NCBI GenBank assembly: GCA_039586365.1
Contig: JBDHKN010000072.1
Coordinates: 1 to 22,935 of the forward strand
Direction: 5' to 3'
DNA from: Gemmatimonadota bacterium
GTDB taxonomy: Bacteria > Gemmatimonadota > Gemmatimonadetes > Gemmatimonadales > GWC2-71-9
DNA: 22,935 nt
The translations under genes and the position numbers were made by a program. This document shows, piece after piece, positions 575 to 22,157 of this stretch (position 1 is the stretch's first letter; each line of letters starts with the position of its first letter). The notes under the pieces were generated by a model. That model saw only the letters and a program-made list of their open reading frames with translations, had not been told where the DNA came from and did not search any database.

Positions 575-581
575 CGGTAAT

Positions 582-1695: not shown

Positions 1696-1775
1696 AGGTC
1701 AAGATGAGCGTCAGAAAGAGGAAAGGAAAGAAGAAGGAAAGAAGGAGGTTAAGATGAGCGGCAGAAAGAGGAAAG
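1696..1775 (+). repeat. 30-bp imperfect direct repeat (period 50) duplicating the start region of the binding-protein gene
   Basis: AGGTCAAGATGAGCGTCAGAAAGAGGAAAG (1696-1725) versus AGGTTAAGATGAGCGGCAGAAAGAGGAAAG (1746-1775); 2 mismatches. Confidence 0.9.
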
Positions 1776-3367: not shown

Positions 3368-3379
3368 ACTACGGGAACC

Positions 3380-3414
3380 TGTGGAGTGGCGGCTGGCATA
3401 GCCGCCGCTCCACA
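3380..3414 (+). terminator. GC-rich stem-loop after the binding-protein gene (mRNA-stabilising hairpin or leaky terminator)
   Basis: TGTGGAGTGGCGGCT (3380-3394), loop GGCAT, AGCCGCCGCTCCACA (3400-3414): 15-bp stem with one G-U pair and only a weak CTTCT tail. Confidence 0.65.
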
Positions 3415-3518
3415 CTTCTGGTACGGCCCTTTCGTTCCGCACAACCGGTATTCCTGGGCATGGCGGTAATCACATGTGTTGAGGGCTCGATTGGACAAGG
3501 CGGTGAGACGAGACAGAG

Positions 3519-4451
3519 ATGGGTCGCTACGTACTGAATAGGCTATTGCAGTTGATACTGGTGCTATTCGGGGTCTCCATCGCCATTTTCCTGATACTGC
3601 GGGTTATCCCAGGAGATCCGGCCGCCCTCATGCTACCTATTGACGCGCCCCGAGAGCAGGTTGAACACCTCAGGGAGGTGTTGGGCCTCAAGGAACCCCT
3701 TCACGTTCAATATCTGACCTTCATCTCCAACGCACTGAGAGGCGACCTGGGAGATTCTTTTCGGTGGAAGATACCAGCCACTGAGTTGGTGCTGAGCCGA
3801 CTGCCGGCGACATTGCAGTTGACGGTTGCGGCCATGGCATGGGCCGTGGTCCTATCCCTGATAATGGGGGTCTTGGCTGGGGCTCGCCAAGGATCGCTGG
3901 TGGACCGCTTCGTCTTGGCCCTGAACTCTCTAATCCAGGCCACCCCTTCCTTCTGGTTCGGTCTGGTCCTTATCATAGTCTTCGCCTTGCGATGGAAGGC
4001 GCTTCCGGCTATGGGGCGGGGGAACATCGAACATGTCCTAATGCCCAGCTTCACCCTCTCGTTGGTCTTGATACCTACCCTAGCGTTGACGATTCGGACC
4101 AACCTGCACCAGATTCTGCATGAGGATTTCGTGCGCACCGCTCGAGCCAAGGGCTTGTCGGAGGGGGTGGTTCTGCTCAAGCACGCCACGGCTCCGCTAC
4201 TGATCTCCCTAATAACCATATTGGGGATGCAGTTCGGCCGGCTGCTGGGAGGTGCTTTCATCATTGAGGTGGTCTTCGCCTGGCCAGGGATAGGCGACCT
4301 GACCCTGCAAGCCATCCGAGCACGCGACTATACGGTGGTTCAGGCAGTGACGCTGATAGTCTCGGGCGTCTTCGTGCTGGTGAACTTGTTCGTAGACCTA
4401 TCCTACGCCTTCATAGACCCACGGGTACGTCTTAGCAGGGGGGGGAGGTGA
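3519..4451 (+). CDS. Peptide/nickel ABC transporter permease (DppB/OppB-like)
   Basis: PGDPA, GDLGDS, RLPATLQL, EAA loop DFVRTARAKGLSE, IIEVVFAWPGIG, DLSYAFIDPRV. Confidence 0.95.
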   Translation: MGRYVLNRLLQLILVLFGVSIAIFLILRVIPGDPAALMLPIDAPREQVEHLREVLGLKEPLHVQYLTFISNALRGDLGDSFRWKIPATELVLSRLPATLQLTVAAMAWAVVLSLIMGVLAGARQGSLVDRFVLALNSLIQATPSFWFGLVLIIVFALRWKALPAMGRGNIEHVLMPSFTLSLVLIPTLALTIRTNLHQILHEDFVRTARAKGLSEGVVLLKHATAPLLISLITILGMQFGRLLGGAFIIEVVFAWPGIGDLTLQAIRARDYTVVQAVTLIVSGVFVLVNLFVDLSYAFIDPRVRLSRGGR

Positions 4452-4463
4452 GGTGGCGGCATC

Positions 4464-5354
4464 ATGACGGTGGGCGAGACGACATCCGAGAGGGGTAGAA
4501 CGGTCAGAGGGTTGTTGAATTCCATGGAAGGGATACGGGGACACCCCCTGCTTGTCGTTGGCGGTCTCATGCTGGCCGTCTGTATGTTGGCTGTTCTCTT
4601 TCCCGGCGCGCTGGCCCCTCATGATCCTCTCAGGAGCGACATCGGAAACCGACTAGCGCCTCCGTTTTGGTACCCTGACGGCTCCATGGAATATCCTCTG
4701 GGAACGGATGGATTGGGAAGGGACCTCTTGAGCAGGATGATATACTCGGCACGGATCTCGTTTACCATCGGCGTCGCAGGCGCAGCCGTCTCTGCGGTCG
4801 TAGGAGTCGCTGTCGGACTCGTGGCAGGGTATTTCGGTGGTTTTCTGGACACGGTCTTGATGAGGTTGACCGACATCCAGCTAGCCTTTCCTTCTACCCT
4901 GCTAGCCATCGCCCTTCTCACCGTGGTGACGCCATCAGTGATCAGCATCGGCTTGGTACTAGCCGTGACGCTATGGGTGTGGCATGCCCGGACCATACGG
5001 GGTATGGTCCTATCCATAAGGGAAAGCCCCTTCGTCCTAGGTGCGAGAGCGTTGGGGGCAAGCAACGGAAGGATCATGCGGAAATACATCACCCCCTTCG
5101 TATTGGGACAGGTATTGGTCTTCGGCATCATCCAGGTGGCTATCATCATCCAGCTCGAAACTGGACTGAGTTACTTGGGCTTGGGCATAAGGCCCCCCGT
5201 ACCCTCCTGGGGGAACATGCTGGCTGAGAACAGGGAATACTTGACCACCGTTCCTTGGGTAGCCATCTTCCCCGGCCTTGCCGTCATCTTCGCTGTTCTT
5301 GGGCTGAGCCTCTTCAGCGAGGGCATGAGGGAGATTCTAGGAAGAAGGTTGTAG
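4464..5354 (+). CDS. Peptide/nickel ABC transporter permease (DppC/OppC-like)
   Basis: LGTDGLGRDLLSRMIYSARIS, EAA loop FVLGARALGASNGRIM, LSYLGLG..PPVPSWGNML. Confidence 0.95.
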   Translation: MTVGETTSERGRTVRGLLNSMEGIRGHPLLVVGGLMLAVCMLAVLFPGALAPHDPLRSDIGNRLAPPFWYPDGSMEYPLGTDGLGRDLLSRMIYSARISFTIGVAGAAVSAVVGVAVGLVAGYFGGFLDTVLMRLTDIQLAFPSTLLAIALLTVVTPSVISIGLVLAVTLWVWHARTIRGMVLSIRESPFVLGARALGASNGRIMRKYITPFVLGQVLVFGIIQVAIIIQLETGLSYLGLGIRPPVPSWGNMLAENREYLTTVPWVAIFPGLAVIFAVLGLSLFSEGMREILGRRL

Positions 5355-5363
5355 AGATTTCCC

Positions 5364-6332
5364 ATGACGACTTCGCTGTTGGAGATCCAAGATCTGACGA
5401 TTTGTTTCCCTGGCCCAAACGGGCTCGTTCCCGCCGTTGATGGGGTTAGTCTGACCCTGGAGGCGGGAACGGTACTGGGCATAGTGGGGGAAAGCGGTTC
5501 CGGAAAGACTATGACGGCCCTCGCCGTCATGCGCCTTCTGCCTCGTGCCGCAAAGGTCACGAGCGGAAGCATATGCTTCAAAGGGCGCGACTTGCTGCAA
5601 CTCTCCATGCGGGAGATGCGAAAGATAAGGGGTGCCGAGATCTCCATGGTCTGGCAGGAACCGATGAGCTCCTTCAACCCGTTCTTCCGCCTGGGAGGTC
5701 AGGTTGCTGAGGCGCTCAGCGCTCACAGGATAGTCAAAGGGAGAGAGGCCTTGAGGAGGGTCATAGAGTTGTTCCGAAGCGTCAAGATCCCTGGAGCGGA
5801 AGATCGGTGTAGGGATTATCCCTTTCAGTTCAGCGGTGGCATGCTACAACGAGCCATGATCGCCATGGCTCTCTCCTGCAATCCGGACATCGTCATAGCC
5901 GATGAACCCACTACCGCCCTGGACGTCACGGTCCAGAGGCAAATCCTCGACCTCGTACAGGATCTGAAGGAGGAGTATGATACCGCCGTCATCTTGATAA
6001 GCCACAGCATGGGGGTGATCAGCGACATAGCTGATGAGGTATTGATGATGTATTCTGGCATGGTTCTTGAAAAGAACGCCACTGAGGAGATCTTAACCTC
6101 ACCCGCTCATCCCTATACAAAGGCCTTGCTCCAGTCAGTCCCCAAGATGACCACAACGGAAAAGCGTCTACCGGCCATACCTGGTGCACCGCCGAACATA
6201 TTCAGCAGGCCCTCGGGCTGTCCCTTTCATCCCCGCTGTCCAAATGCGGGCGCGGCATGCAGCGAAGAAAGGCCGATCCCCAGGGAATTGGAGGAAGGGC
6301 ATCTGGTCGCTTGTCATAATGCCTACACATAG
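5364..6332 (+). CDS. Peptide ABC transporter ATP-binding protein (DppD/OppD-like)
   Basis: Walker A GESGSGKT, signature FSGGMLQR, Walker B IIADEPT-like (VIADEPTTALD), HPYT and C-terminal GCPFHPRC...VACH. Confidence 0.95.
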   Translation: MTTSLLEIQDLTICFPGPNGLVPAVDGVSLTLEAGTVLGIVGESGSGKTMTALAVMRLLPRAAKVTSGSICFKGRDLLQLSMREMRKIRGAEISMVWQEPMSSFNPFFRLGGQVAEALSAHRIVKGREALRRVIELFRSVKIPGAEDRCRDYPFQFSGGMLQRAMIAMALSCNPDIVIADEPTTALDVTVQRQILDLVQDLKEEYDTAVILISHSMGVISDIADEVLMMYSGMVLEKNATEEILTSPAHPYTKALLQSVPKMTTTEKRLPAIPGAPPNIFSRPSGCPFHPRCPNAGAACSEERPIPRELEEGHLVACHNAYT

Positions 6333-6363
6333 GCGCCGACATTCGATTGGGAATCCATCAGCA

Positions 6364-7341
6364 ATGGATACTGAACACATCCTGATGGTAGAAAGGCTAG
6401 TCAAGCATTTTCTTCTCAAGGGAGGCGTTTTTGGGCGAGACAAAGGCGTGGTGAGGGCTGTGGATGGGGTATCGTTTCGTCTGCGCCAAGGGGAGACACT
6501 GGGTCTTGCTGGGGAGAGTGGATGTGGCAAATCGACCTTAGCCCGGGCGATGCTGCGGCTAGAGGAAGACGTCCAAGGGAAGGTACTCTTTCAGGGCGAG
6601 GATTTGCTTACCGTGCCACCCGGTAGGATGCGGGCCTTGCGCCGAGAGGTCCAGATGGTATTTCAAGACCCGACAACCTCACTACACCCCCTGATGAGCG
6701 CTGGGGATTTGGTGGCGGAGCCTCTGTTGATACATAAACTGGGGGATGAGAAGCAGAGGCATGAGAGAGCTTTGCAGCTTTTGGAGATGGTGGGGTTGGG
6801 TCGGGAGTTGGCGGAAAGTCTCCCTCACGAGTTGAGCGGAGGCCAGAGGCAGAGGGTGGGCATCGCTCGGGCCGTTGCTCTGGAGCCCAAACTGCTAGTG
6901 TTCGATGAGCCCCTGTCGGCCATCGATGTCTCCGCTCAGGCCCAACTTCTGAACCTGATCCAAGACCTCCAGGAGAGATTGCAGTTAAGCTATGTCTTCA
7001 TCTCCCATGATCTAGGCGTGGTCAAGCATGTCAGCCAGCGAGTGGCTATCATGTACTTAGGACGGCTCGTAGAGGTGGCGCCAAGCGAGGACCTGTATCG
7101 TCATCCATTGCACCCTTATACCCAGACCCTCCTATCCTCCATCCCTCGGCTTTTCCTGGGCGAGATGGACGTGACCAGCTATCCACCGCCTATGGGTGAT
7201 ACGCCTAGCCCCGTTGATCTGCCCTCTGGTTGTCGGTTTCACCCTCGCTGCTCCAGAGCGGAGGAAGGTTGCGAGACCTGTGAGCCAGAATTGGTGGATG
7301 TTGGAGGAGGTCACGCGGTCGCTTGTCACTATGTCACGTAG
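6364..7341 (+). CDS. Peptide ABC transporter ATP-binding protein (DppF/OppF-like), ~325 aa
   Basis: GESGCGKST, LSGGQRQR, FDEPLSAID, HPYT, GCRFHPRC...VACH. Start moved to ATG 6364 (MDTEHIL) to avoid overlapping the upstream ATPase. Confidence 0.94.
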   Translation: MDTEHILMVERLVKHFLLKGGVFGRDKGVVRAVDGVSFRLRQGETLGLAGESGCGKSTLARAMLRLEEDVQGKVLFQGEDLLTVPPGRMRALRREVQMVFQDPTTSLHPLMSAGDLVAEPLLIHKLGDEKQRHERALQLLEMVGLGRELAESLPHELSGGQRQRVGIARAVALEPKLLVFDEPLSAIDVSAQAQLLNLIQDLQERLQLSYVFISHDLGVVKHVSQRVAIMYLGRLVEVAPSEDLYRHPLHPYTQTLLSSIPRLFLGEMDVTSYPPPMGDTPSPVDLPSGCRFHPRCSRAEEGCETCEPELVDVGGGHAVACHYVT

Positions 7342-7395
7342 AGGTGGGTGGATAACAGTGGTTCACATTCTCAGGGAGGTGAAGAAGGAGGAGAG

Positions 7396-8616
7396 ATGAG
7401 TGGAGAAACCCACATAACCATGTGGACCTATCCTTGGGATATCAAGGATGAGGGAATCGAGAAGGTGGTCAGATTCGCCAAATCCGACTTGGGCTTGACG
7501 TCTCTAAGCGTTACTGCCCTCTATCATAGCGGTAAGTTCCTTCTGCCTCGCAACCCCAGGCGAAGGGTCTACTTCCCGGAACCTGGCGCTGCCTACTTTC
7601 GGCCCAATCCCGAACTCTACGAGGGCTTGAGACTACAACCCCTTGTGAGCAGCCTCGTTCAAGAGGGGGATTTCTACCCTCTCATCCGCGAGGCGTGTCA
7701 GAAGGTGAGCCTCAACTTCGAGGCTTGGGTCTTGGCCTTCCACAACTCCGGGCTGGGGTGGCAACACCCCGAATGCTGTCAACGAAACGCCTACGGAGAC
7801 ATATACCCGTATGCGCTGTGTCCTTCTAACCCCCATTGTCAGGAATACCTCAAGGCCCTGGTGACTGACCTGGTAACTAACTATCAACCTGATACGGTGA
7901 GCGTGGAATCACCCAACTACATCGGCTATCTGCATGGTATGCATCATGAGGCTACCCCCACCAACTACGGCGAACTGGAGGTCTTCCTGCTCTCCCTTTG
8001 CTTCTGCGACAGTTGCCGGGACATGGCCCAGGAAGCAGGAATCGAGGTCGATGATCTCCAACATTGGATCAGGGAGAGCCTGGATGGCCGCTTGAACGAG
8101 GATTCGTTCTCCCAGGAGTGGATGAAGAAGAACATGGAAGATGTCTACGGCCTTCTCATGTATAGGTCTGACCTGATGGACTTCGTCCGTGCCCGACAAA
8201 GGGTGGTGATCTCCATAATGCGGGATTTGAAGGCGATATGTGAGAAAGCAGGTGCGAAACTCTTTACCATCGCTTCCATCTTCTCTCGACCCTCCAATCG
8301 ATCCTGGACCGAGGGCACGCATCTGCCAGAGCTAGCGGACCTGGTGGATGGATTAGCCATCCTCTGCTACTATCCTACCCCGACCGAGGTGTATGATGAT
8401 CTCCGCTTCGCGGTCTCGGTGGTGCCCGACAAGGAGAAGTTGATGGTGGGCCTCATGGCCTCTATGCCCACGGCTTCCTCCAAAGGGGTGCTTCTGGGCC
8501 AAGTCTCAGCAGCGAAGGCTTTAGGCATATCCAAGTTTGGTTTCTACAACTATGGTTTCATAGACAGTCTTCGGCTGCCCTGGGTAGCCGAGGCGGTGAG
8601 ATTGATCAAGGGGTAG
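7396..8616 (+). CDS. Conserved hypothetical protein, probable glycoside-hydrolase-like TIM barrel with a Cys cluster, ~406 aa
   Basis: Strong SD AGGAGGAG before ATG 7396; tightly packed in the operon; YPWD, YHSG..L.PRNP...YFP, LCPSNP and LCFCDSC motifs; no signal peptide. The fold is inferred. Confidence 0.8.
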   Translation: MSGETHITMWTYPWDIKDEGIEKVVRFAKSDLGLTSLSVTALYHSGKFLLPRNPRRRVYFPEPGAAYFRPNPELYEGLRLQPLVSSLVQEGDFYPLIREACQKVSLNFEAWVLAFHNSGLGWQHPECCQRNAYGDIYPYALCPSNPHCQEYLKALVTDLVTNYQPDTVSVESPNYIGYLHGMHHEATPTNYGELEVFLLSLCFCDSCRDMAQEAGIEVDDLQHWIRESLDGRLNEDSFSQEWMKKNMEDVYGLLMYRSDLMDFVRARQRVVISIMRDLKAICEKAGAKLFTIASIFSRPSNRSWTEGTHLPELADLVDGLAILCYYPTPTEVYDDLRFAVSVVPDKEKLMVGLMASMPTASSKGVLLGQVSAAKALGISKFGFYNYGFIDSLRLPWVAEAVRLIKG

Positions 8617-8624
8617 GAGAGACG

Positions 8625-9431
8625 ATGGTTGAAGAGAAGAGTATTCTGCTGGGGGAGATGACGTGGCAGGAGATCAAGAAAGCGATCGGCCCGGGGACGG
8701 TGGTGGTGTTGCCCGTGGGCTCCACAGAGCAACACGGACCTCACATGCCGTTGAAGACCGATCACTATTTCGTCTATGAGATCGCCAAGCGAGCAGCATT
8801 GAAGGCCAGCGAGACGACCCGGGTGCTGGTCGCCCCGGTCTTGGCTTTCGGTTGTTCAGGTGTCCATATCGATTTCCCGGGGACCATCTCTATAGGTCAT
8901 CAGACCTACATCGCATTGATAGAAGAACTTGGAGAGAGCATTCTCAAGCATGGTTTTGAGAAGCTTCTTATCCTAAACGGTCACGGGGGCAACTTTGGAG
9001 CCTTGGTAGTAGCAGCCAAAGACCTCTACGATTCCACAGCTGCTACTATCGCTGTGGCCTGCTACTGGCATTTAGCAGCCAAGGAGATAGCGGCCCTTCG
9101 GGAGTCTCCCCCCGGGGGGATATCTCACTCTGGAGAAATGGAGACCTCGTGTATGCTATTCCTAGAGCCCTCGGCTGTTCGGTGGGAGAAGGTCAGGAAG
9201 TCTATCCCGAAGTGGAAGAGCCGCTATGTACTAGACGACCTTCTAGGAGGGGGACAAGTGGTCCCAGCCCTTCATGTGGCCGACTACAGCCCCACTGGGG
9301 TGATAGGCGATCCGACCATTGCTACTCGAGAGAAGGGGGAGGGGTTCTTGCAGGCCATCGTGAGTGGAGTGGCTGCTTTCATCGTTGATTTCGCCGGATG
9401 GGATGCGGGGCAGATGTGCTCCTTTGAATAG
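8625..9431 (+). CDS. Creatininase-family amidohydrolase
   Basis: EMTW, PVGSTEQHGPHMPLKTD, FPGTIS, NGHGGN, HSGEMETS, GVIGDP...AT.EKG. Confidence 0.93.
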   Translation: MVEEKSILLGEMTWQEIKKAIGPGTVVVLPVGSTEQHGPHMPLKTDHYFVYEIAKRAALKASETTRVLVAPVLAFGCSGVHIDFPGTISIGHQTYIALIEELGESILKHGFEKLLILNGHGGNFGALVVAAKDLYDSTAATIAVACYWHLAAKEIAALRESPPGGISHSGEMETSCMLFLEPSAVRWEKVRKSIPKWKSRYVLDDLLGGGQVVPALHVADYSPTGVIGDPTIATREKGEGFLQAIVSGVAAFIVDFAGWDAGQMCSFE

Positions 9432-9685
9432 CGACTCTCACCATGCGCGATGAGGCGCACACGTAGTGAAGAGGGCCGGGGAATCACCCAACTGCATTGT
9501 TCCGTTGTCCGGCCTCCGGATCCTGGATCGGATCATGCGCCCTCAGTCTGTGCACCCAAGGGCGCCTTGAGGGATGGGGGGGTAGACCTACCCCATCATA
9601 AGAGCTTCACCTCAGTCCACGCCTTCTGGAAACGCCGCCCCGAAGCGGCGAGGTGAGGCTCAATGACATAGAGGAGGTGACTTCC

Positions 9686-10975
<1,290 letters not shown>

Positions 10976-10998
10976 GGATCAGAGGGAGGGAAAGGCCC

Positions 10999-11889
10999 GT
11001 GATCGTCGATACCCATACCCATACCCCGCAATACAGAGACGAGATACTGGAAGAGGAGATCCAGTACAACACCGTTTGGCGTCCGGATAGGGCAGTCAAG
11101 GTGCCCGTCAACTGGGAAGAGTACTTGAAGGCCATGGAGCCAGTGGACAAGGCCATCGTCTTTGGGATCGCTGAACTCGATGAAGAGCCTGAGGGGCGGC
11201 TTGCTGATCCGTTGCGCGAGCAAGGCCGTTGGAAGGGTAATGTTAACGATATGACCGCGGAGTTTGTGCGGGCCGATCCACACAAACTGATAGGCTACAT
11301 GTCGGTCCACCCCAGAGACGGGGACTGCTTGGATGAGATCGACAGGTGCGTGTCCGATTTGGGATTAAAAGGGTTGAAGCTGGGCCCTAACTACCAGAAT
11401 TTCGAGCCGTGCGGCGATGAAGCCTTCCTGGTGTACGCGCGGGCCCAGGAGTTGTCGCTGCCGATAGTATTCCACACAGGCACCTCTCCTAGGAGGTATG
11501 CCGCTCTGGACTACGCCCATCCCCGCCATTTCGATCGAATTGCGATCGCCTTCCCCGATGTGAAGATGGTCCTGGCTCACATGGCGCATCCTTGGCAAAC
11601 CACCGCCATCGCGGTGATAAGGAAACACCCAAACCTCTACGCCGATGTCTCTGCCCTCTTCTATCGACCTTGGTCCTTCTATAACTGCATGAGGCTAGCG
11701 GAGGAGTGGGGGGTATTGCACAAATTGCTCTTCGCAACCGACTACCCGGCCTCCACCCCGCAAGAGACCATCGAGGCCCTGCGGGCGCCCAACCGAGCTA
11801 TCGAGGGGACGAACCTGCCTCGGATATCGGAGGCGGCTATGGAGGAGATAATCAACCGGGATGCCTTGAGCTTGCTGGGGCTTGGCTGA
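10999..11889 (+). CDS. Amidohydrolase family protein (Amidohydro_2 metal-dependent TIM barrel), ~296 aa
   Basis: SD GGGAGG before GTG 10999; IVDTHTH (HxH), GLKL, FHTG, LAHM, NLYADVS, LLFATDYP. Confidence 0.9.
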   Translation: MIVDTHTHTPQYRDEILEEEIQYNTVWRPDRAVKVPVNWEEYLKAMEPVDKAIVFGIAELDEEPEGRLADPLREQGRWKGNVNDMTAEFVRADPHKLIGYMSVHPRDGDCLDEIDRCVSDLGLKGLKLGPNYQNFEPCGDEAFLVYARAQELSLPIVFHTGTSPRRYAALDYAHPRHFDRIAIAFPDVKMVLAHMAHPWQTTAIAVIRKHPNLYADVSALFYRPWSFYNCMRLAEEWGVLHKLLFATDYPASTPQETIEALRAPNRAIEGTNLPRISEAAMEEIINRDALSLLGLG

Positions 11890-11956
11890 GCTATTGCTCA
11901 ATCTGATCGCTCGAGAGGGCTAGCCGGATTGGGGCCCGCAAAGGAGGATACTGCAT

Positions 11957-12961
11957 ATGGACCGGGTGAGAACGGCAGTGATCGGAATCGGCAGTTTTGG
12001 CGAACTGCACGCCCGAGCGTATGTGCATAGCCCAATGGCAGACCTCGTGGCGGTAGTCACGACCACCGAGGCTCGAGCGCGCGAAGTAGGAGAAAAGCTG
12101 GGAGTGCACTGGTACACCGATTTCCGGGAGATGCTGGGGATGGAAGATGTGGACGCTGTCTCCATCTCCAATCGAGACGCCGATCACAGGGAACCAGCCA
12201 TCGCCTGCGCTCGGGCGGGGAAGCATATCTTGTTAGAGAAGCCCATGGCCCCCACTGTCGAGGAGGCGGTTGCCATCATCGACGTGGTGGACGAAGCAGG
12301 GGTCAAGATGATGGTGAACTTCATAAACCGCTTTGCGCCGAATTACGTGGGTGCTTACGAGGCCATTCAGAGGGGAGAGATAGGAGAGGTCATATCAGTA
12401 TTCAGCCGCAGGAACGGAAGTAGGTGGGCGATGGAGAACTACGGCAAGTGGACTGACATTCTCATGTCGACAGGTATCCACGAGATCGACCTTATTACTT
12501 GGTATGCCGACTCCCCGGTGAAAAGAGTCTATGGTGAGTCAGCAAGATTCTCGGTGCCTCAGGAGCAGGAGGACAACGTATTCATGTCTCTCTTGAGAAT
12601 GGAGAACGGAACCATAGGGAATCTGGAAACCAGTTGGTCCCTTCCTGCAACTCATCCCACCTATCTGGAATTCCGGACCGATATCGTGGGCACCAAAGGG
12701 ATCATCTCCATGAACAACTCCAACAGAGGGATGGTTGTCTCGACCGCGGAGGAATGTACCTACCCGGACATATCGCTCTGGCCGGTTCAACGAGGGCGGG
12801 TGGGAGGAGCTCTCCGAGAGGCGATTGCTCACTTTCTGGAATGCATCTTGGAGGATCGAGAGCCCATAGTGGGCAGTGCGGAAGGGCGTCACTCGCTGGA
12901 AGTGGTCATGGCTATCAAGGAATCATGCCGCTCAGGGAAACCGATAGAGGTGAATCGCTGA
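11957..12961 (+). CDS. Gfo/Idh/MocA family NAD(P)-dependent oxidoreductase
   Basis: SD AGGAGG; Rossmann motif VIGIGSFG; AGKHILLEKPMA; catalytic region STGIHEID. Confidence 0.93.
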   Translation: MDRVRTAVIGIGSFGELHARAYVHSPMADLVAVVTTTEARAREVGEKLGVHWYTDFREMLGMEDVDAVSISNRDADHREPAIACARAGKHILLEKPMAPTVEEAVAIIDVVDEAGVKMMVNFINRFAPNYVGAYEAIQRGEIGEVISVFSRRNGSRWAMENYGKWTDILMSTGIHEIDLITWYADSPVKRVYGESARFSVPQEQEDNVFMSLLRMENGTIGNLETSWSLPATHPTYLEFRTDIVGTKGIISMNNSNRGMVVSTAEECTYPDISLWPVQRGRVGGALREAIAHFLECILEDREPIVGSAEGRHSLEVVMAIKESCRSGKPIEVNR

Positions 12962-13359
12962 TGAAGAATCTAGTAAACTCGTCTGAAGAATCCGATAGGA
13001 CCGGAACATTCATTTCGCCGGCGATGGTGGGTGGCGATTTCGTCTTTACATCAGGTCATGTCGGCTGGGACCCAGAAAACCGCAAGGCGCCGCCCACGAT
13101 CGAGGCGCAGACGGCACAGACGATTGAGAACTTGAAGGCTGTGCTAGAAGCTTCGGGCAGCTCGCTGACTGACGTCGTCAAGGTGAACGTCTACCTCGTT
13201 AACATCGATGACTTCGATGCCATGAACCAGGTATACCGTCGGTACTTTGCCGACAACGCGCCTGCACGCACCACTGTCGGTGTCGCTGCACTGGCGCGTT
13301 CCGACCTGCTGATTGAGATCGACATGGTCGCCTTGCTGCCCGAAGCGGGGGTGTTATGA
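12961..13359 (+). CDS. RidA/YjgF/UK114 family enamine/imine deaminase, 132 aa
   Basis: FTSG, EAQTAQTIENLKAVLEASGSSLTDVVKVNVYL, MNQVY, PART (catalytic Arg), LIEID. ATG overlaps the upstream TGA (TGATG). Confidence 0.92.
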   Translation: MKNLVNSSEESDRTGTFISPAMVGGDFVFTSGHVGWDPENRKAPPTIEAQTAQTIENLKAVLEASGSSLTDVVKVNVYLVNIDDFDAMNQVYRRYFADNAPARTTVGVAALARSDLLIEIDMVALLPEAGVL

Positions 13360-13862: not shown

Positions 13863-15161
13863 ATGGCAGAGGAAGAGGTCAGACGATTGGCGAATCTGTC
13901 AGAACTCGTTCCGAAGGAACTGGCTGACCTCCAACTCGAACGGTTGAAGTGGAGTGTGAGTCACGCCTACGAGAACTCGTGTCTGTACACTGAGAAGTTG
14001 GACGCCGCTGGCGTGAAGCCTGAAGACATCCGCACACTGGACGACGTGAGGAGGCTGCCCTTCACGGACAAGGGAGAGCTGCGGAAGGACTATCCCTTTG
14101 GCTGGCGTGCAGTTCCCCTCGAAGACATAGTTCGCATTCATGCCTCGTCGGGGACGACGGGAAAGAAGACGGTGGTGTACTACACCCAGAAGGACATCGA
14201 CGACTGGGCCGACATGTTTGCCCGGTGCTATGGGATGGCAGGGGTGATGAAGAACGACAGGGTACAGATCACCCCTGGCTATGGGCTGTGGACGGCTGGG
14301 ATAGGCTTCCAGCTGGGCGCTGAGCGGCTGGGGGCGATGGCGGTCCCCGTGGGACCAGGCAACACGGCACAGCAACTGGAGTTGATGCAGGATTTTCAGA
14401 CCACGGTGATCACTGGCACGTCCTCGTATGGGTTGGCGATGGCCGAAGCCATTGCCGCGGAAGGTTTGGGGCCGAAGTTGAGATTGAGGATAGGGATCTT
14501 CGGATCAGAGCGGTGGAGCAAGCAGATGCGAGCTCGCATTGAAGAGGCTATGGGTGTGGAGACCTTCGACATCATAGGCATGACGGAGTTATACGGCCCA
14601 GGCACGGGGATCGACTGCCGCTTCCACGAAGGGATTCACTTCTGGGGCGACTACTTCTTGTTTGAGATAGTGGATCCTGCAACCGGGGAGCCGGTACCCC
14701 ATGGTGAGAGTGGAGAGATCGTCGCCACGACTTTGGCTAAGGAAGCCATGCCTCTCTTGAGATACCGCACTAGAGACGTCTCGCGGCTAATCCCCGAGCC
14801 CTGCAAGTGTGGCAGCGAGCACCCCAGGATAGACAGGATTCTGGGCCGTACCGACGACATGTTCAAGATCCACGGGGTGAATATCTATCCAGGTCAGATA
14901 GACAACCTTCTGTCACAGACCGACGGCGTCAGCAGCGAGTATCAGATCGTGCTGGAGAGGGTACGCGGTCGGGACAGTATGTTGATCAGAGTGGAGAGGG
15001 ACCCGGAGACCGACCTGCCTGAGCAGGACGTAGCGCGTGACCTGCGGAGCAAGATCAAGACGCAGATAGGGGTCACGGTGGACGTTGAACTGTTGGACTA
15101 TCGTAGTCTGCCGAGGAGCGAGAAGAAGACCAAGAGAGTGTTCGACAGCCGTGCTCTGTAG
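13863..15161 (+). CDS. paaK: Phenylacetate--CoA ligase family protein (AMP-forming, PaaK-like)
   Basis: LPFTDK, RIHASSGTTGK, GYGLWTAG, FGSERWS, GMTELYGPG, LLRYRTRD, GRTDDMFKIHGVNIYP, KTKRVFD. The substrate is not proven. Confidence 0.88.
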   Translation: MAEEEVRRLANLSELVPKELADLQLERLKWSVSHAYENSCLYTEKLDAAGVKPEDIRTLDDVRRLPFTDKGELRKDYPFGWRAVPLEDIVRIHASSGTTGKKTVVYYTQKDIDDWADMFARCYGMAGVMKNDRVQITPGYGLWTAGIGFQLGAERLGAMAVPVGPGNTAQQLELMQDFQTTVITGTSSYGLAMAEAIAAEGLGPKLRLRIGIFGSERWSKQMRARIEEAMGVETFDIIGMTELYGPGTGIDCRFHEGIHFWGDYFLFEIVDPATGEPVPHGESGEIVATTLAKEAMPLLRYRTRDVSRLIPEPCKCGSEHPRIDRILGRTDDMFKIHGVNIYPGQIDNLLSQTDGVSSEYQIVLERVRGRDSMLIRVERDPETDLPEQDVARDLRSKIKTQIGVTVDVELLDYRSLPRSEKKTKRVFDSRAL

Positions 15162-15366: not shown

Positions 15367-17415
15367 ATGAGCGAGAGGTCGAACGTGTACCACAAGTACG
15401 GTTTCCTGAGCCCTCGGAGCCAGATAGCCCACAGCGGCGATGAAGCGGCGGCGTTAGCTACGGCAATCGGTTTCCCAGTTGTGCTGAAGGTGGTGTCTCC
15501 GGACATCGTGCACAAAACCGATGTCGGAGGCGTTGCGCTCGGACTCGATTCCCCGGAGGCTGTCAGAGCAGCCTACGCCCGAATGATAGCTGCCGTCCGG
15601 GACAAGGCTCCGGAGGCTCGGATCGACGGGATCAGAGTCGAGGAGATGTGCCAAGAAGGGGTGGAGATCATCATTGGGCTCATCAATGATGGACAGTTCG
15701 GACCCTCGGTAATGGTGGGGATGGGCGGCATTTTCACGGAGGTGCTTCACGATGTGAGTTTCCGCGTGCTGCCCATCTCCAGAGATGACGCCAGGGCCAT
15801 GATAGGGGAGCTCAGAGGGCACGTCTTACTGGAGGGGTATCGGGGTCAGCCTGCTGTGTCCAGGGAGATGCTGTTGGATCTCCTGATGAAGGCCAGTGTC
15901 ATGGGCCTGGACTTGGCCGACAGGCTGGGCTATGTGGATTTCAACCCCATACTTGTTTGGGACGACCAGCACAGGGTCCTGGATGCCAAGATTTCGCTGC
16001 GCTCTGAGAGGGTCCCTCTCACCCACAGGGAGCCTGATACTTCACACCTTGACACCTTCTTCGGTGCCAAGTCTGTGGCCCTCGTCGGGGCGTCCGCCAC
16101 GCCGGGAAAGATAGGGAACGCCGTGCTGGATAGCCTCTCCAAACACGACTACCGGGGGAGGGTCTACCCCGTGAACCCCACCAGACGGGAGATAATGGGC
16201 CTGAAGGCTTACCGGTCTCTGTCCAGCATACAAGATGATGTCGATTTGGTGGTTGTCACGGTGGCCCTGGCCAAGGTCCCCGACATCATCCGGGAGTGTG
16301 CTACCAAGGCGGTGCATAACATGGTCATAGTCTCAGGGGGCGGTAAGGAGCTGGGCGGCGAGGGCGAGGAGATCGAGGCCACCATCAAGCGGTTGGCTGA
16401 AGAGAGCGATGTGCGGGTCATCGGGCCCAACTGCATTGGTGTCTTCGATGGTGGTGCGCGCCTGGATACGTTCTTCCAAGTCCACGAAAGGATGACGCGT
16501 CCCAGCAAAGGCTCCATCGGCGTGCTTACCCAGTCGGGAACCGTAGGTGCGGCCTTCTTGGAGGCGATGTCGGACGTGGGCATCAGCAAGTTCATCAGCT
16601 ATGGCAACCGCGCAGATGTCGATGAGGCTGATATCGTGGCGTATTTGGGGGACGACCCGGGGACGAAGGTCATTGTCTGTTACGTGGAAGGTCTTGGCGA
16701 TGGGCGTAAGTTCATCTTCACCGCCCGCGAGGTGGCCGAGAGGAAACCGGTGGTAATCTTCAAAGCTGCGAGAACGCACCAGGCCGCGCGAGCCTCTATC
16801 TCCCACACTGGTTTCTTCGGGGGGACCTACGAGGTCTGCCGCGGCGCTTTCAAGCAGGCGGGATTGATAGCCGTGGATAGTCTCGAGGAGCTATGTGCTG
16901 TGGCCAAGGCTTTGGCCTTGCAGCCTCCAGCCATGGGCCTTCGCGTGGGCATGATCAGCAATGGCGCTGGGACTGTGGTGCAGGCCATTGACTTCCTGCC
17001 AGAATACGGGCTGGAGCTGATCCCTCTGGCCGCTGGCTCGGTCGAGAGGTTGAGACAGGTCTTCCCGCCGTACTTCCTAGTCCAGAATCCTATTGACGTG
17101 ACGGGTTCAGCGACGAGTGCCGAGTATGAGATCGGCATAGACGTGCTCCTTGATGACCCTCACGTAGACATCATCATGCCCTGGTTCGTCTTTCAGGACA
17201 CACCTCTGGATGAGGGGATCGTAAGGGTACTGGGCGCCTGCTGCAAGCGGCGACGGAAGCCTATCCTCGCTGGTGCAATGGGAGGGGATTATACGCAAAG
17301 GATGTCCAGACTCATAGAGGGCGAAGGCGTGCCGGTCTATCACTCAGTTCGTGACTGGGTATCGGCTGCCAAGGGACTTGCACATGGAAGAAAATCGAAG
17401 GAGGTCCGCAGATGA
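15367..17415 (+). CDS. ADP-forming acyl-CoA synthetase with fused beta (ATP-grasp) and alpha (CoA-binding) domains
   Basis: N-terminal GFPVVLKVVSPDIVHKTDVGGV, FGP.VMVGMGG, DFNP..VLDAK; then KSVALVGAS..PGKIG, YPVNP, RVIGPNCIG, QSG, GNRADVDE, SHTG (phospho-His), NPIDVTG. The start is uncertain (TTG 15304 or ATG 15367; no clear SD). Confidence 0.9.
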   Translation: MSERSNVYHKYGFLSPRSQIAHSGDEAAALATAIGFPVVLKVVSPDIVHKTDVGGVALGLDSPEAVRAAYARMIAAVRDKAPEARIDGIRVEEMCQEGVEIIIGLINDGQFGPSVMVGMGGIFTEVLHDVSFRVLPISRDDARAMIGELRGHVLLEGYRGQPAVSREMLLDLLMKASVMGLDLADRLGYVDFNPILVWDDQHRVLDAKISLRSERVPLTHREPDTSHLDTFFGAKSVALVGASATPGKIGNAVLDSLSKHDYRGRVYPVNPTRREIMGLKAYRSLSSIQDDVDLVVVTVALAKVPDIIRECATKAVHNMVIVSGGGKELGGEGEEIEATIKRLAEESDVRVIGPNCIGVFDGGARLDTFFQVHERMTRPSKGSIGVLTQSGTVGAAFLEAMSDVGISKFISYGNRADVDEADIVAYLGDDPGTKVIVCYVEGLGDGRKFIFTAREVAERKPVVIFKAARTHQAARASISHTGFFGGTYEVCRGAFKQAGLIAVDSLEELCAVAKALALQPPAMGLRVGMISNGAGTVVQAIDFLPEYGLELIPLAAGSVERLRQVFPPYFLVQNPIDVTGSATSAEYEIGIDVLLDDPHVDIIMPWFVFQDTPLDEGIVRVLGACCKRRRKPILAGAMGGDYTQRMSRLIEGEGVPVYHSVRDWVSAAKGLAHGRKSKEVRR

Positions 17416-18647
17416 CTCAACCATGGAAGACAGATAAATGGTTCACCAGCTCCTGGAACTACTTACCAGAGGTGACTCAGGGCTTTGCTTTCCCCAATGA
17501 GATCAAGATCCATGACATGACTCTACGGGATGGAGAGCAGCAAGCAGGTATCGAGCTACGAAAGGAAGACAAGGTTCGCATAGCGGAAGTGCTGGCCGAA
17601 TTGGGGGTCCATCGTATAGAAGCCGGTATGCCTGCGGTCTCCGAACAGGATGAGGAGGCGATCAAGGAGATCGTGAAACGCGATCTGGGGCCAGAGATAT
17701 TCGCCTTCTGCCGCTGCATGGTGAGCGATGTGGAACGAGCCGGCGATTGCGGAGTGGATGGCATCGTGGTAGAGATACCGACCAGTCGACACCTTATAGA
17801 GAATGCCTACCAGTGGCCTCTGGAGAGAGCACTCGAACAATCGGTGAAGGCCACCAGCCGAGCCCAGGAGTTAGGCCTGTACACGTCGTTCTTCACCATC
17901 GACGCGACGAGAGAAGACATGAACTGGCTTCTTGATTTCATCGATGATGTAGCCGCCCAGGGTCATATGGACAGCCTCGTCCTGGTAGATACGATGGGAG
18001 TCTGCACGCCTCAAGCTATACAGTATTTTGTGCAAAGAGTGAAAGAAAGAGTGGATAAGCCGCTGGAGGCGCATTTTCACAACGATTTTGGCCTTGCCGT
18101 GGCCAATACCCTGGTCGCCTTGGCCAACGGAGTCGAGGTGGCGCATACTTCAATTTGTGGCGTGGGAGAGAGGTCTGGGGCTGCGGCGCTGGAAGATGTG
18201 GTGTTGGGGCTTCTGACCCTATACGGAATTGACCTGGGCCTGAGTTACGATAGGCTTTACGAGCTGGCTCAGATGACAGTTGGGCTTTGCAGGCATCGGC
18301 TGCCTCAGAACAAGTCCATTGTGGGGGAGGCGCTATTCTCCGTCGAGTCGGGGATAGTCGCCATGTGGCTGGATAGATGCACCGGGCCGCTAGCCACCGA
18401 GGTTTTTCCCCTTCACTGGGAACTGATGGGCCACAACCCTCCCCAAGTGGTCCTGGGCAAAGGTGCGGGCCAGGCCTCCATCGTGTCTTGGTTAGAAAAG
18501 CTGGGCTTAGAGGCTTCCGAGGAGGAGATGGAGCGCCTCCTACCGTTGGTGAAGGAGAAAGCGATGGCAAAGAGAGGTCTGCTAACGGAGGAGGAATTCG
18601 AAGACTTGGCGCGGGGAATCTTGGGGCACAGTTCGGATCGGGCTTAA
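17412..18647 (+). CDS. DRE-TIM metallolyase, LeuA/homocitrate/citramalate synthase-like, lacking the C-terminal regulatory domain
   Basis: SD GGAGG; ATGA overlap with the upstream gene; DMTLRDGEQ, IEAG.P, DTMG, HFHNDFGLAVAN, GVGERSG, NKSIVG...F..ESGI, LGK..G; 411 aa. Confidence 0.88.
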   Translation: MTQPWKTDKWFTSSWNYLPEVTQGFAFPNEIKIHDMTLRDGEQQAGIELRKEDKVRIAEVLAELGVHRIEAGMPAVSEQDEEAIKEIVKRDLGPEIFAFCRCMVSDVERAGDCGVDGIVVEIPTSRHLIENAYQWPLERALEQSVKATSRAQELGLYTSFFTIDATREDMNWLLDFIDDVAAQGHMDSLVLVDTMGVCTPQAIQYFVQRVKERVDKPLEAHFHNDFGLAVANTLVALANGVEVAHTSICGVGERSGAAALEDVVLGLLTLYGIDLGLSYDRLYELAQMTVGLCRHRLPQNKSIVGEALFSVESGIVAMWLDRCTGPLATEVFPLHWELMGHNPPQVVLGKGAGQASIVSWLEKLGLEASEEEMERLLPLVKEKAMAKRGLLTEEEFEDLARGILGHSSDRA

Positions 18648-18880
18648 TCACGCATGCACGCCAGAGTGGCGAGACATGAACAGTGCGGGCGTCTAAGCAG
18701 CACTGTGTATGGACGGGCCTTTGTTGGATGGCCTCTGTTGCGAAGTTCGAGGACCACAGTAGTGCGAAAAGAATCGATGCGGTGATAGATGGATGCGGAT
18801 AGTTTGAGTTCCATCGAGCCTGTCCCTGTGAGAGCACGACTGATCAAGAGCCCGCTCGACGGGTGGTGAGTACAGTAGTC

Positions 18881-20278
18881 ATGATGGACACCAAGATTCT
18901 CAGAGAGTTGGGGCTGATAGTAGGAGAAAGGGACCTGCTTACCTCGCCAGAGGATTTGGTCTGCTACTCCTATGATGCATCTCAACCTACCTTGGATCAA
19001 CTGCCGAGCGCCGTTCTCAACGCCGATTCAACGGAGGAGGTGGCCGCCATCGTCCGGCTGGCCAATCGAAGACGTTTCGCGGTAGTCCCGCGCGGGTCGG
19101 GCACCAATCTGAGCGGCGGCGCCATCCCGCTGCGAGGAGCTGTAGTGCTGAATCTTGGTCGCATGAAGCGGATCTTGGAGCTCGATGCGGACAACCTGAC
19201 CGCCACTGTGGAGGCCGGGGTCATAACCGACCAGTTGCTAGCCGCGGTAGAGGCCGAGGGGCTACTGTATCCTCCAGATCCAGCCAGTTCCTCGGTGTCA
19301 AGCATCGGGGGCAACGTGGCCGAGAACGCCGGAGGTCTGAGGGGCCTGAAGTATGGAGTAACCGGCGACTACGTATTGGGGTTAGAAGTAGTCCTGCCCA
19401 CCGGGGAGGTCATAGTCACGGGCGGGAAATGCTTCAAGGATGTGGCTGGTTATGACCTGACATCGTTATTCGTGGGTTCCGAAGGCACTCTGGGTGTGGT
19501 CACCAAGATCACGGTGAGATTGATCCCTCCTCCACAGGCCAAACGCACCTTGCTCGCCCTTTACCGTCAGGTGGAGGAAGCTTCCCGCTCTGTGTCAGGA
19601 ATAATCGCCGCTCACCTGATCCCGGCCACCTTGGAGATCTTGGACGGTACTACCATCAGATACGTGGAGGAGTTCAAAGGCCTCGGTCTACCTGTGGACT
19701 TGGGAGCCATACTCCTGATCGAGGTTGATGGGCGCCCGACAGAGGTGGAGGAAGAATCCTCACGTGTAGCCGAGATCTGCCGCAGCCTGGGCGCCACTGA
19801 GGTAAGCATTGCCTCCAGCGAGGAAGAGGCCCTGCAACTCAGGGAGGCACGGAAGGCCGCTTTGCCCGCCTTGGCCCGGGTCCGCCCGACCACGATCCTG
19901 GAGGATGTTACGGTGCCCCGCAGTCAGTTGGCACCTATGGTGAAGAAGGTTAGAGAGATCGCTCAGCATCACGACGTCTCAATTGCCGTGTTCGGCCACG
20001 CGGGGGACGGCAATCTTCACCCCACCTGCATGACCGATGAACGGGACCGAGAGGAGATGGAGCGCGTGCAGGCAGCCCTGACTGAGATCTTTGCCACGGC
20101 CCTGGAATTGGGGGGAACCATCACCGGGGAACACGGCATCGGCCTTAAGAAGCGACCCTTCTTGCCTCAGGCGGTAGGTCAGGCCAGGTTAGAAGCGATG
20201 GTCAGGATCAAGAATGTGTTGGATCCCCAAGGCATTCTGAACCCCGGCAAGATATTCAGGGAAGCGGGTCCAACATGA
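18881..20278 (+). CDS. glcD: FAD-linked 2-hydroxy-acid dehydrogenase (glycolate oxidase subunit GlcD / D-lactate dehydrogenase-like)
   Basis: YSYDA, PRGSGTNLSGG, YPPDPAS, GGNVAENAGG....KYG, GSEGTLG, FGHAGDGNLHP, GTITGEHGIG, LNPGK. The start is 18863, 18881 or 18884. Confidence 0.88.
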   Translation: MMDTKILRELGLIVGERDLLTSPEDLVCYSYDASQPTLDQLPSAVLNADSTEEVAAIVRLANRRRFAVVPRGSGTNLSGGAIPLRGAVVLNLGRMKRILELDADNLTATVEAGVITDQLLAAVEAEGLLYPPDPASSSVSSIGGNVAENAGGLRGLKYGVTGDYVLGLEVVLPTGEVIVTGGKCFKDVAGYDLTSLFVGSEGTLGVVTKITVRLIPPPQAKRTLLALYRQVEEASRSVSGIIAAHLIPATLEILDGTTIRYVEEFKGLGLPVDLGAILLIEVDGRPTEVEEESSRVAEICRSLGATEVSIASSEEEALQLREARKAALPALARVRPTTILEDVTVPRSQLAPMVKKVREIAQHHDVSIAVFGHAGDGNLHPTCMTDERDREEMERVQAALTEIFATALELGGTITGEHGIGLKKRPFLPQAVGQARLEAMVRIKNVLDPQGILNPGKIFREAGPT

Positions 20279-21429
20279 TTGCCGGCCAAGTCTATGACCA
20301 GATTGTGAGTTGCATGCGTTGCGCCTATTGTTCGCCCACTTGTCCCAGCTATCTCTCCTTGGAGACGGAGCGAGCCTCTCCTCGCGGGAAGATCGCCCTC
20401 ATTCGGGCCTTTGCAGAGGGACGTCTTGCCCTCTCGAGCAATTTGGCCAGTCAAGTATACCAATGCCTTGACTGTGAACTCTGTACACTGAAGTGCCCGG
20501 GAGGAGTGAATATCGCTGAGATACTCAGAGAGGCGAAGAGGATCCTGACCCAAAGCGAGTTCTTCCCTCCAAGCTTGGCTGGATTGCACACCCGAATATC
20601 TGAAACAGGCAATATCGCTGGGGAGGCTGCGGAGAATCGTCTCCTGTGGTGTCAAGACTATGGCGAGATACTCCAGGAAGTGGTAGGAGCAAGGGGCGCA
20701 GAGGTCATTCTCTTTGTAGGTTGTGTAGCATCTCTCTTTCCTACGGCCTATTCCCTCTGTCGGAGCCTAATAGAGATCATGCTCAAGATGGGGATAGACT
20801 TCAGCATCTTGGGAGACGGGGAGGTCTGCTGCGGCTACCCCCTGTTGCTCGCTGGTTTGCCCCCCGACGATCAGATAGAGCGTAACACGACTCTACTTGC
20901 GACCCTGGGCGCCACCAAGTTGGTTACGGCCTGTCCCTCCTGCTTCTACACGTTCAAGGAGCTTTATCCAGAACTCGGCATGGAGCTGTGGCACACCAGT
21001 GAATTCTTGCTCCAGATTCTGGAGGAGCGGGCCCTTGCCCTGAGACCCTTCCCCAAGAAGGTCACCTATCATGATCCCTGTGATCTGGGCCGCAAGAGCG
21101 GGATCTACGAGGCACCGCGGCAAGTTCTCCAGTCCATCCCGGGATTGGAGTTGGTGGAGATGGAAGCCAACCGGGCGGAGGCATTCTGCTGTGGTGGCGG
21201 CGGCAACATGGAGAGCATCGATCCGGCCTTGTCGGCTACCATTGCCGACAGGAGGCTAGCCCAGGCTCAGGCCGTAGGCGCGGAGGTGATAGCCAGTGCT
21301 TGCCAGCAATGCGAACGCACCCTGGCCATGGCTGCCCGCCGAGCCAAGGCCAGGATCAGGGTGGTGGATATCGCCCAGTTGGTCCGGGAGGCGATGGACG
21401 GTGGAAGGCAGGAGCAAGGTGCTGGCTAG
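20275..21429 (+). CDS. Fe-S oxidoreductase subunit (GlcF/HdrD-like: 2x[4Fe-4S] plus two CCG domains)
   Basis: CMRCAYCSPTCP, CLDCELCTLKCP, FVGC, EVCCG, ACPSC, YHDPCDLGR, CCGGGG, ACQQC. ATGA overlap with glcD. Confidence 0.9.
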   Translation: MIAGQVYDQIVSCMRCAYCSPTCPSYLSLETERASPRGKIALIRAFAEGRLALSSNLASQVYQCLDCELCTLKCPGGVNIAEILREAKRILTQSEFFPPSLAGLHTRISETGNIAGEAAENRLLWCQDYGEILQEVVGARGAEVILFVGCVASLFPTAYSLCRSLIEIMLKMGIDFSILGDGEVCCGYPLLLAGLPPDDQIERNTTLLATLGATKLVTACPSCFYTFKELYPELGMELWHTSEFLLQILEERALALRPFPKKVTYHDPCDLGRKSGIYEAPRQVLQSIPGLELVEMEANRAEAFCCGGGGNMESIDPALSATIADRRLAQAQAVGAEVIASACQQCERTLAMAARRAKARIRVVDIAQLVREAMDGGRQEQGAG

Positions 21430-21521: not shown

Positions 21522-22157
21522 CCACAGGTGGCCGGTGCCTCAAACACTCCCCAGGGAGTAGCTCTCTCGCCTATACTGCGTCACTAGAGCCCCGACGGAT
21601 GCTGCCAGCCCCATGAACGAAGGGTGCTTCCGCCCCTTTTCCCGTGCGCGTGCCGCTAGGAACGGTGCTCAAGACATTGCCTAAGTGCGGTGGCTGGAGC
21701 AAACGTGGAGATCAGCATACGCAACGCGGGTCTACCCCTCCGAGCCTTAGCTCAGATCTGTTCGGGGAGAATCCCTGCTGCTTGCGGAGGGGCCATTACT
21801 AACCTCATGGCCGGTGGCCCCTTGGACGGAACCGAAGGATCCTGGGCATACTATGAGACGATGGGCACGGCAGCCGGGCCGTGCCAGGGAGCCGACAGGG
21901 TCGATGGCATTCACTGCGACATGACCAACACCTTGAATACTCCCATCGAATCCCCGGAGCACTACTATCCTATTGAGATGACCCAGTACGGATTTCGGGA
22001 GAGCAGTGCGGGGGCGGGAGAATGCTGGGGAGGCTATGAGTCTCCACGACAACGAGATGCAGGAGCAGTGATCGAGGATCTGCGTAAGGGTCTCACTAGC
22101 AATGAGGCACCTCGCCCAATGTATGGGTTGCGACCAGACGAGACACATGAGCCATAG
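21522..22157 (+). pseudogene. Degraded hydantoinase B / 5-oxoprolinase beta-subunit fragment
   Basis: Family motifs spread across frames: PQVAGASNTP, PMNEGCFRPF followed by a frameshift at the TTTT run (~21637-21640), PVRVPLGTVL, AVAGANVEIS, YYETMG, MTNTLNTPIE..E..YP, then a jump to the C-terminal-like YESPRQRD..AVIEDLRKGLTS. The N-terminal half is absent. Confidence 0.85.

Follow-up and report, generated by a model that had tools for sequence, protein, structure and literature searches.

A recurrent pair of an ADP-forming acyl-CoA ligase and a triad-free LeuA-like DRE-TIM enzyme, tentatively read as a ligase/lyase system

Synthases of the LeuA, homocitrate synthase (HCS), CimA and MAMS types belong to one fold family and share a DRE helix, an HxH metal site, a Thr for the C1 carboxylate, accessory subdomains and several basic residues. 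In MAMS, the E227A and H388A variants are inactive and His388 is the likely base, as stated in the available part of PMC11532901. Two-step systems, namely malate thiokinase/malyl-CoA lyase, citryl-CoA synthetase/lyase and the (R)-citramalyl-CoA or HMG-CoA lyases, place an ADP-forming ligase gene beside that of a C–C enzyme without the hydrolytic set of the synthases. Malyl-CoA lyases rely on a single Arg and a single carboxylate for acid/base catalysis (available part of PMC3832036), and anaerobic glycolate users are reported to go through malyl-CoA (available parts of PMC8092247 and PMC6313629). Here we analyzed a four-gene unit on the plus strand at positions 15367–21429 of a 22,935-nucleotide window, which is the whole of contig C121 of G000, the Gemmatimonadota genome to which the contig was binned. 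The unit encodes an ADP-forming acyl-CoA ligase, a LeuA-like DRE-TIM metalloenzyme, an FAD-linked D-2-hydroxy-acid dehydrogenase and an Fe–S partner of the latter. The DRE-TIM enzyme shares the above features of the synthases but lacks their Glu/His/Tyr triad, and differs further in a new Glu121, a Phe99/Phe161 pocket, an N-terminal extension and a catabolic context. We tentatively favor a reading in which the first two proteins form a pair of ligase and CoA-ester lyase that would exchange (R)-malate or (R)-citramalate with acetyl-CoA plus glyoxylate or pyruvate. Compared with the known two-step systems, the window ligase is a single-chain ACD instead of an SCS-like enzyme, and its partner, a putative lyase, is LeuA-like rather than CitE and only 24% identical to an HMG-CoA-lyase-type protein. 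The parts are of known kinds; their combination and the active site are new.

The DRE-TIM protein (17412–18647, 411 aa; PF00682) carries an N-terminal PWKTDKWF extension, has no regulatory domain and scores under every NCBIfam cut-off shown, the best curated profile being TIGR02090 (306 of 485 bits). We aligned 196 rows, comprising the top homolog hits and the fetched loci of more than 330 aa, with one G000 paralog left out. R39, D40, Q43, H221 and H223, from the DRE helix and the HxH metal site, are invariant in 196/196 rows. At the Glu position of the xED motif every row has Ile, Val or Ala (Ile163 in the window protein), the His of ESGxH is present in at most two rows (Val316 in the window protein), and the DRE-TIM protein has no Tyr at 329–331, leaving it without the Glu–Tyr–His triad. 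Alignment to MAMS (6e1j) equates the lost Glu and His positions with Glu227 and His388, the triad Tyr being Tyr399. A new acidic residue, Glu121, occurs in 195 of the 196 rows. A set of 128 representatives at 50% identity, each 340 aa or longer and drawn from a list of 150, includes 61 with Glu121 but no triad, 21 canonical members and 44 that lack both Glu residues; none combines Glu121 with Glu163. The initial annotation had assumed ordinary Claisen chemistry, which sits poorly with the family-wide loss of the triad that such synthases use. Thr194 together with R101, R167, R254, K301, K350 and K381, common to canonical synthases, is retained; because these residues, Arg39, Gln43 and the metal His are all kept, the enzyme probably still binds a CoA ester. 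Its pocket F99/S159/F161/V190/H245, mapped by alignment, matches neither HCS (H/R/T/S/H) nor isopropylmalate synthase (IPMS; L/E/S/N/E) in the position table of the available part of PMC12961565. Phe99, Phe161 and Val192, positioned after the same source, leave small space for a side chain, and this bulk suggests glyoxylate or pyruvate. With all scores under the cut-offs, the triad lost and the pocket mismatched, the enzyme is, judged by its sequence, no standard LeuA, NifV or CimA, in line with the initial proposal that it is neither a standard IPMS nor an HCS. The profile of HMG-CoA lyase and (R)-citramalyl-CoA lyase, PRK05692, gives 66 of 246 bits, and the HMG-CoA-lyase-type enzyme likewise lacks the triad Glu and the His segment. 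A literature search, with subscription papers mostly outside its reach, returned no paper on this DRE-TIM subfamily or the four-gene unit; the 2016 DRE-TIM fingerprint paper by Kumar may cover the cluster.

The ligase (15367–17415, 682 aa) falls in a bacterial sister group of thaumarchaeal Nmar_1309, a 3-hydroxypropionate–CoA ligase. Nmar_1309 (PDB 9y43) is the best structure match, at 696 bits (next chain 342 bits), and 12 of the 13 active-site residues named in the available part of bioRxiv 10.1101/2025.09.22.677778 are identical by alignment count, one residue number being unmatched. Compared with NF045492, the ligase has the same domain order 3-4-1-2-5 and both catalytic His residues, but reaches 879 bits against a curated cut-off of 1300. 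Its short N-terminus is normal within its own clade. In a tree of 77 rows built by a quick method with a midpoint root, 20 low-GC rows, probably archaeal in origin, stand apart from a bacterial clade of 51 rows; each of the four basal branches of the bacterial clade contains rows adjacent to a DRE-TIM gene, with solo rows nested among them. The window ligase further differs from Nmar_1309 in Phe369 (29/29), where archaeal-type enzymes have Ala (Ala390), and no genes of the 3-hydroxypropionate/4-hydroxybutyrate cycle were seen beside it. Since the contig is probably misbinned (see below), five cluster genomes carrying the same ligase/DRE-TIM pair, G001–G005, were used as genomic context. In four of the five, another acetate–CoA ligase scores above the TIGR02717 cut-off. 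The unit ligase thus appears to be an extra paralog beside a housekeeping acetate ligase and, because of that separate enzyme, need not supply acetyl-CoA, a point on which the initial annotation is not supported in its present form.

The linkage of the unit genes exceeds chance, and its conservation bears out the association on which the initial annotation built. With the DRE-TIM protein as query, the ligase adjoins in 13 of 80 genome loci fetched; with the ligase as query, the DRE-TIM gene adjoins in 18 of 79, none of them low-GC, and the adjacency recurs in two separate DRE-TIM clades. These counts, like all conservation counts here, take in near-duplicates and kin, which are not independent. 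Within the window subgroup (at least 66% identity), the ligase is present in 13/13 loci and the dehydrogenase in nine of the ten having enough downstream DNA, two being near-duplicates. In the second clade (38–41% identity), the DRE-TIM gene lies upstream of the ligase, together with ETF and GlcD. A 2-hydroxy-acid dehydrogenase is found within 5 kb in 54 of 115 DRE-TIM loci, compared with 0.8% of random G000 positions. It is of the FAD type in 15 loci, of the NAD type in 39 and of both in none; after merging at 90% identity, the FAD type remains in 13 and the NAD type in 18 of 80. The dehydrogenase partners form at least four groups with 38–53% mutual identity, and appear to have been recruited from at least four subfamilies. 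Among 401 genomes of the class of G001, the DRE-TIM gene occurs in 18, the ligase in 19 and both in five, always adjacent, these five being already in the 80-locus set. A profile search of the remaining 14 ligase genomes revealed one more DRE-TIM gene, likewise adjacent, so that the genes adjoin in 6/6 class genomes with both. Where it occurs, the pairing is therefore tight, but it is optional for either gene; an obligate partnership was rejected, given the many loci of either gene without the other. The unit recurs in many uncultured sediment-type bacteria. A cluster look-up named no cultured organism, and the protein atlas returned only unnamed HMGL-like clusters for the DRE-TIM query. Plasmid records matching the DRE-TIM protein number 287, the 25 listed ones at 31–36% identity; from synthase genes in plasmids and in relatives of G000 it stands at about 30–35% identity. 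Two further arrangements were observed around the family. A DddP-like M24 protein, an NAD 2-hydroxy-acid dehydrogenase, the DRE-TIM enzyme and a Zn-dehydrogenase form a cluster common to Acidobacteria and Anaerolineae (L042–L059, L194–L203), the M24 proteins exceeding 80% identity in some pairs. Elsewhere, ligase and DRE-TIM genes lie 5' of a molybdenum hydroxylase whose large subunit is split (L011, L013, L014, L016, L017, L019).

The dehydrogenase gene (18884–20278, 464 aa; frame open from 18863, 471 aa) encodes an enzyme of the GlcD/D-lactate type, whose best structures are glycolate oxidase 9qgz and LctD 7qh2. It shares with GlcDEF and the D-lactate dehydrogenases LctD and LDHD the FAD fold, the catalytic Arg/His/His/Glu/His set and a hydrophobic pocket end, in support of the original assignment to a glycolate/D-lactate enzyme. 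The distal-carboxylate residues of D2HGDH, Thr390, Lys401, Tyr432 and Asn443, are replaced by Leu, Leu/Ile, Phe and Thr, as mapped through 3pm9 and by sequence spacing relative to the Arg and the two paired His residues. Enzymes without these four residues, which bind the far carboxylate of D-malate or D-2-hydroxyglutarate, accept only glycolate or D-lactate according to the available part of PMC7801405. The predicted pocket thus fits glycolate or D-lactate and not D-malate; a D-malate dehydrogenase identity is disfavored, as is the earlier alternative that the enzyme oxidizes a malate-type product. The unit is nevertheless distinct from GlcDEF: GlcD scores 526 bits (TIGR00387, cut-off 568), GlcE is missing, and the GlcF-like electron-transfer subunit (20275–21429, 384 aa; PF13183, PF02754), with two CxxCxxCxxxC and two CCG motifs, is far from E. 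coli-type GlcF (88 of 333 bits). Moreover, ETF-linked or NAD-linked enzymes replace the dehydrogenase in other loci. LarA is present in 5/5 cluster genomes, often in many copies, and is little informative.

From these genes, their linkage and the residue changes, we infer the activities, substrates and direction of the unit as follows. The DRE-TIM enzyme would form or cleave the C–C bond that links acetyl-CoA to a small 2-oxo acid (glyoxylate is likely, pyruvate the next choice), keeping the CoA ester unhydrolyzed; Arg39 and Glu121 could do the acid/base work of the lyase. The ligase would exchange the resulting ester, likely (R)-malyl-CoA or (R)-citramalyl-CoA, with the free acid, the (R) product being assumed because LeuA-family stereochemistry gives this configuration. 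The GlcD/GlcF-like pair would likely interconvert the 2-oxo acid with glycolate or D-lactate, and operation in the glycolate direction would generate ATP at the ligase step. We favor the ligase/lyase pair because the triad has been lost, the ligase is apparently an additional paralog whose best characterized relative activates a 3-hydroxy acid, and the design recurs in these genomes: an SCS-like ligase accompanies a citryl-CoA lyase in G001 and a CitE-like protein in G004 (L251/L252; G001:C14, G004:C14), and an SCS-like ligase with an HMG-CoA-lyase-like protein is also found in G001. In a row at L168:2-5996 (G001:C7), LeuCD-like, PrpF-like, SCS-beta/alpha-like and HMG-CoA-lyase-like genes likely form a degradation route for an unsaturated dicarboxylate. 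No full-length citrate synthase was found in G001, G002 and G004, and no malate synthase in the five cluster genomes. A more specific version, which we regard as doubtful, is an ATP-yielding (R)-malyl-CoA glycolate route in anaerobic Anaerolineae, with GlcD/GlcF making glyoxylate, a LeuA-derived lyase joining it to acetyl-CoA while keeping the thioester, and the ligase converting that thioester into ATP. The malyl-CoA glycolate route of Moorella reportedly yields ATP.

Several observations weigh against the ligase/lyase pair. Among the ligase alignment columns inspected, which were part of the column table, no active-site column distinguishes ligases with a DRE-TIM partner from solo ones, nor was a new basic residue observed that could bind a second carboxylate. 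Solo ligases lie directly 5' of ArgJ (L110, L111, L114, L116, L242–L245) or near phosphate butyryltransferase and a 2-oxoacid oxidoreductase (VorB), a context that fits a plain short-chain acyl-CoA ligase. In 13 of the 19 class genomes with the ligase, no DRE-TIM family member was found. Conversely, 83 of the 115 family loci have no adjacent ligase and yet unchanged pocket residues, and only 10 of the 83 have another CoA-related neighbor among the families queried. A weak search for gene fusions among 7997 longer candidates found none. Chiefly because of the 83 ligase-free loci, two other readings stay in play.

The first of these is a true synthase with a rewired site, the route of the initial annotation, which ranks close behind the ligase/lyase pair but which we still consider unlikely: the ligase would activate acetate released by upstream deacylases, GlcD/GlcF would deliver glyoxylate or pyruvate, and the DRE-TIM enzyme, with Glu121 as base, would condense and hydrolyze to (R)-malate or (R)-citramalate. 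It joins the same acetyl-CoA and small 2-oxo acid as the lyase reading and differs in thioester hydrolysis. The mutual exclusion of Glu121 and Glu163 would also fit a synthase whose base moved by one strand, deacylases of the M20, M81 and creatininase types do lie upstream, solo ligases are found 5' of ArgJ, and some ligase-free loci hold other acetyl-CoA sources (E1 subunits in four, phosphate acyltransferase in three). On the other hand, the triad is required in MAMS (available part of PMC11532901), 44 of the 128 representatives have neither Glu, a housekeeping acetate ligase is already encoded in 4/5 genomes, and a dehydrogenase without D-malate-binding residues offers no next step within the unit. 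Malate synthase divides the evidence: among 50 family-bearing genomes searched (of 77 chosen loci), the first 20, from Chloroflexota and other mostly anaerobic lineages, have none, but 23 of the 50 hold the canonical enzyme above its cut-off. The DRE-TIM family as a general replacement of malate synthase was rejected on this count. Of the malate- or citramalate-synthase-like route first proposed for the window, an acyl-CoA and a small 2-oxo acid stand as likely reactants, while a family-wide malate-synthase role is weakened.

A CoA-independent cleavage by a retro-aldol enzyme, decarboxylase or C–C hydrolase would free pyruvate or glyoxylate from an intermediate of a pathway, with ligase and dehydrogenase only disposing of the pieces. 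The catabolic clusters contain neighbors suited to handling aldehydes or pyruvate (Zn-dehydrogenases, Mo-hydroxylases, AOR, PEP-synthase-like proteins and E1), and the commonest of them, that with the M24 protein, has no CoA ligase. We nonetheless hold this reading to be rather improbable, given that the basic residues and C-terminal subdomain of the CoA-using synthases are retained, the DRE helix reads DGEQQ instead of the His form DGMHS of the L169 aldolase, the DRE-TIM protein scores only 62 of 286 bits against TIGR03217 of the 4-hydroxy-2-oxovalerate aldolases, other aldolases adjoin the DRE-TIM gene in some loci, and the reading leaves unexplained why the gene is so tightly coupled to a special ligase in two clades. 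Thiolytic cleavage of a 2,4-dioxo acid would begin with attack of CoA at C4, yielding pyruvate and an acyl-CoA, for instance glycolyl- or lactoyl-CoA, from which the ligase would gain ATP, and GlcD would oxidize the freed hydroxy acid. This reading would use all three enzymes in series, and the SDR, Zn-dehydrogenase, sugar-acid dehydratase, LarA and FAH-family neighbors suit diketo-acid routes; it is nevertheless highly improbable, as the ligase-linked clade has no 4-dehydrogenase as a constant partner and no DRE-TIM precedent is known. An ordinary isopropylmalate, homocitrate or citramalate synthase beside unrelated genes, to which the best profile and structure matches and the database names of the homologs would point, is scarcely credible in view of the sub-cut-off scores, lost triad and mismatched pocket, and of the full-length LeuA-type genes elsewhere in G001–G004 (in G005 the unit's gene is the only hit).

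In the translations, a leucine operon is recognizable in both G001 and G004, and G001 also has a lysine cluster with HCS-like genes. The lysine cluster (L167:4692-7046, G001:C1) contains two tandem HCS-like genes, the operon-first one lacking the HESGIH histidines, an arrangement that we presume to resemble split NifV subunits.

The window contig probably stems from Anaerolineae and was misbinned in G000. With a tetranucleotide distance to G000 of 0.292, it ranks fourth among 56 contigs of similar length and is a composition outlier; an Anaerolineales locus lies at 0.148, compared with 0.207 for the nearest G000 contig. The tRNA-Gly(CCC) at 72–145 (plus strand), an Anaerolineae-like marker whose anticodon is duplicated in G000, shares 99% identity with the G001 copy, 78% with the other G000 copy and 78–79% with G000's own and same-genus ones. 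No DRE-TIM homolog above 34% identity was found in 30 relatives of G000. On these grounds G000 was rejected as host context.

Open reading frame (ORF) and sequence checks reproduced the four genes and both ATGA overlaps of the initial annotation, at 17412–17415 (ligase/DRE-TIM) and 20275–20278 (dehydrogenase/Fe–S gene); such overlaps are frequent in operons and prove little when taken alone. Pfam and NCBIfam assign the products to the ADP-forming acyl-CoA ligases (ATP-grasp part first), HMGL-like DRE-TIM proteins, FAD 2-hydroxy-acid dehydrogenases and 4Fe–4S plus CCG proteins, each scoring under the cut-off of its own best curated family. Family-profile scans of 15 window ORFs and four further ones matched no leuBCD, aconitase or nif family, as originally stated. 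A gap of 215–236 bp, which is not conserved, divides the unit into two gene pairs, and a promoter and terminator scan gave chance-level hits only. Upstream, a PaaK-like AMP-forming CoA ligase (13863–15161, plus strand; TIGR02155, 454 of 646 bits) is no constant part of the unit; L001 has no more than remnants of it. Family profiles define a catabolic block at 450–13359 (plus strand) comprising a FadR-type regulator, a peptide-type ABC transporter, an unknown protein, a creatininase-like amidohydrolase, a class III aminotransferase, an amidohydrolase, a Gfo/Idh/MocA oxidoreductase and RidA; the regulator and aminotransferase share 79% and 72% identity with those upstream of the same unit in G001. 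There (L170, G001:C1:330000-345000), ectoine-utilization-like genes (EutA-, DoeA- and deacylase-like) and a TfrAB-like pair also lie upstream. The protein at 7348–8616 matches no Pfam or NCBIfam family; it is 30% identical to the gene product directly 5' of the ligase in L004, and GHL10-like clusters, a weak lead, are its nearest named protein-atlas clusters. An integrase N-terminal fragment (218–580; PF02899, weak match) follows the tRNA-Gly on its 3' side, and the catabolic cluster may be an old island, although no repeat of the tRNA-Gly end was found in the window. Downstream lie a hydantoinase B/oxoprolinase fragment (21690–22157) and a gamma-glutamyltranspeptidase-like gene truncated where the contig stops (22202–22935).

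In summary, this analysis describes a large and diverse triad-free, Glu121-bearing DRE-TIM branch that is filed as isopropylmalate, homocitrate or citramalate synthase and can inflate the predicted amino-acid biosynthesis of uncultured anaerobes. Similarly, ligase-like proteins are filed as 3-hydroxypropionyl-CoA synthetase, a label that can give the impression of carbon fixation in gene contexts indicative of catabolism. For LeuA-type enzymes, the unit is relevant to how the triad separates condensation from hydrolysis, and its three purifiable enzymes make the reaction directly testable. If true, the (R)-malyl-CoA glycolate route would represent a reaction class new to the DRE-TIM enzymes, one that thousands of records wrongly list as LeuA, and would hint at the origin of the thaumarchaeal carbon-fixation ligase.

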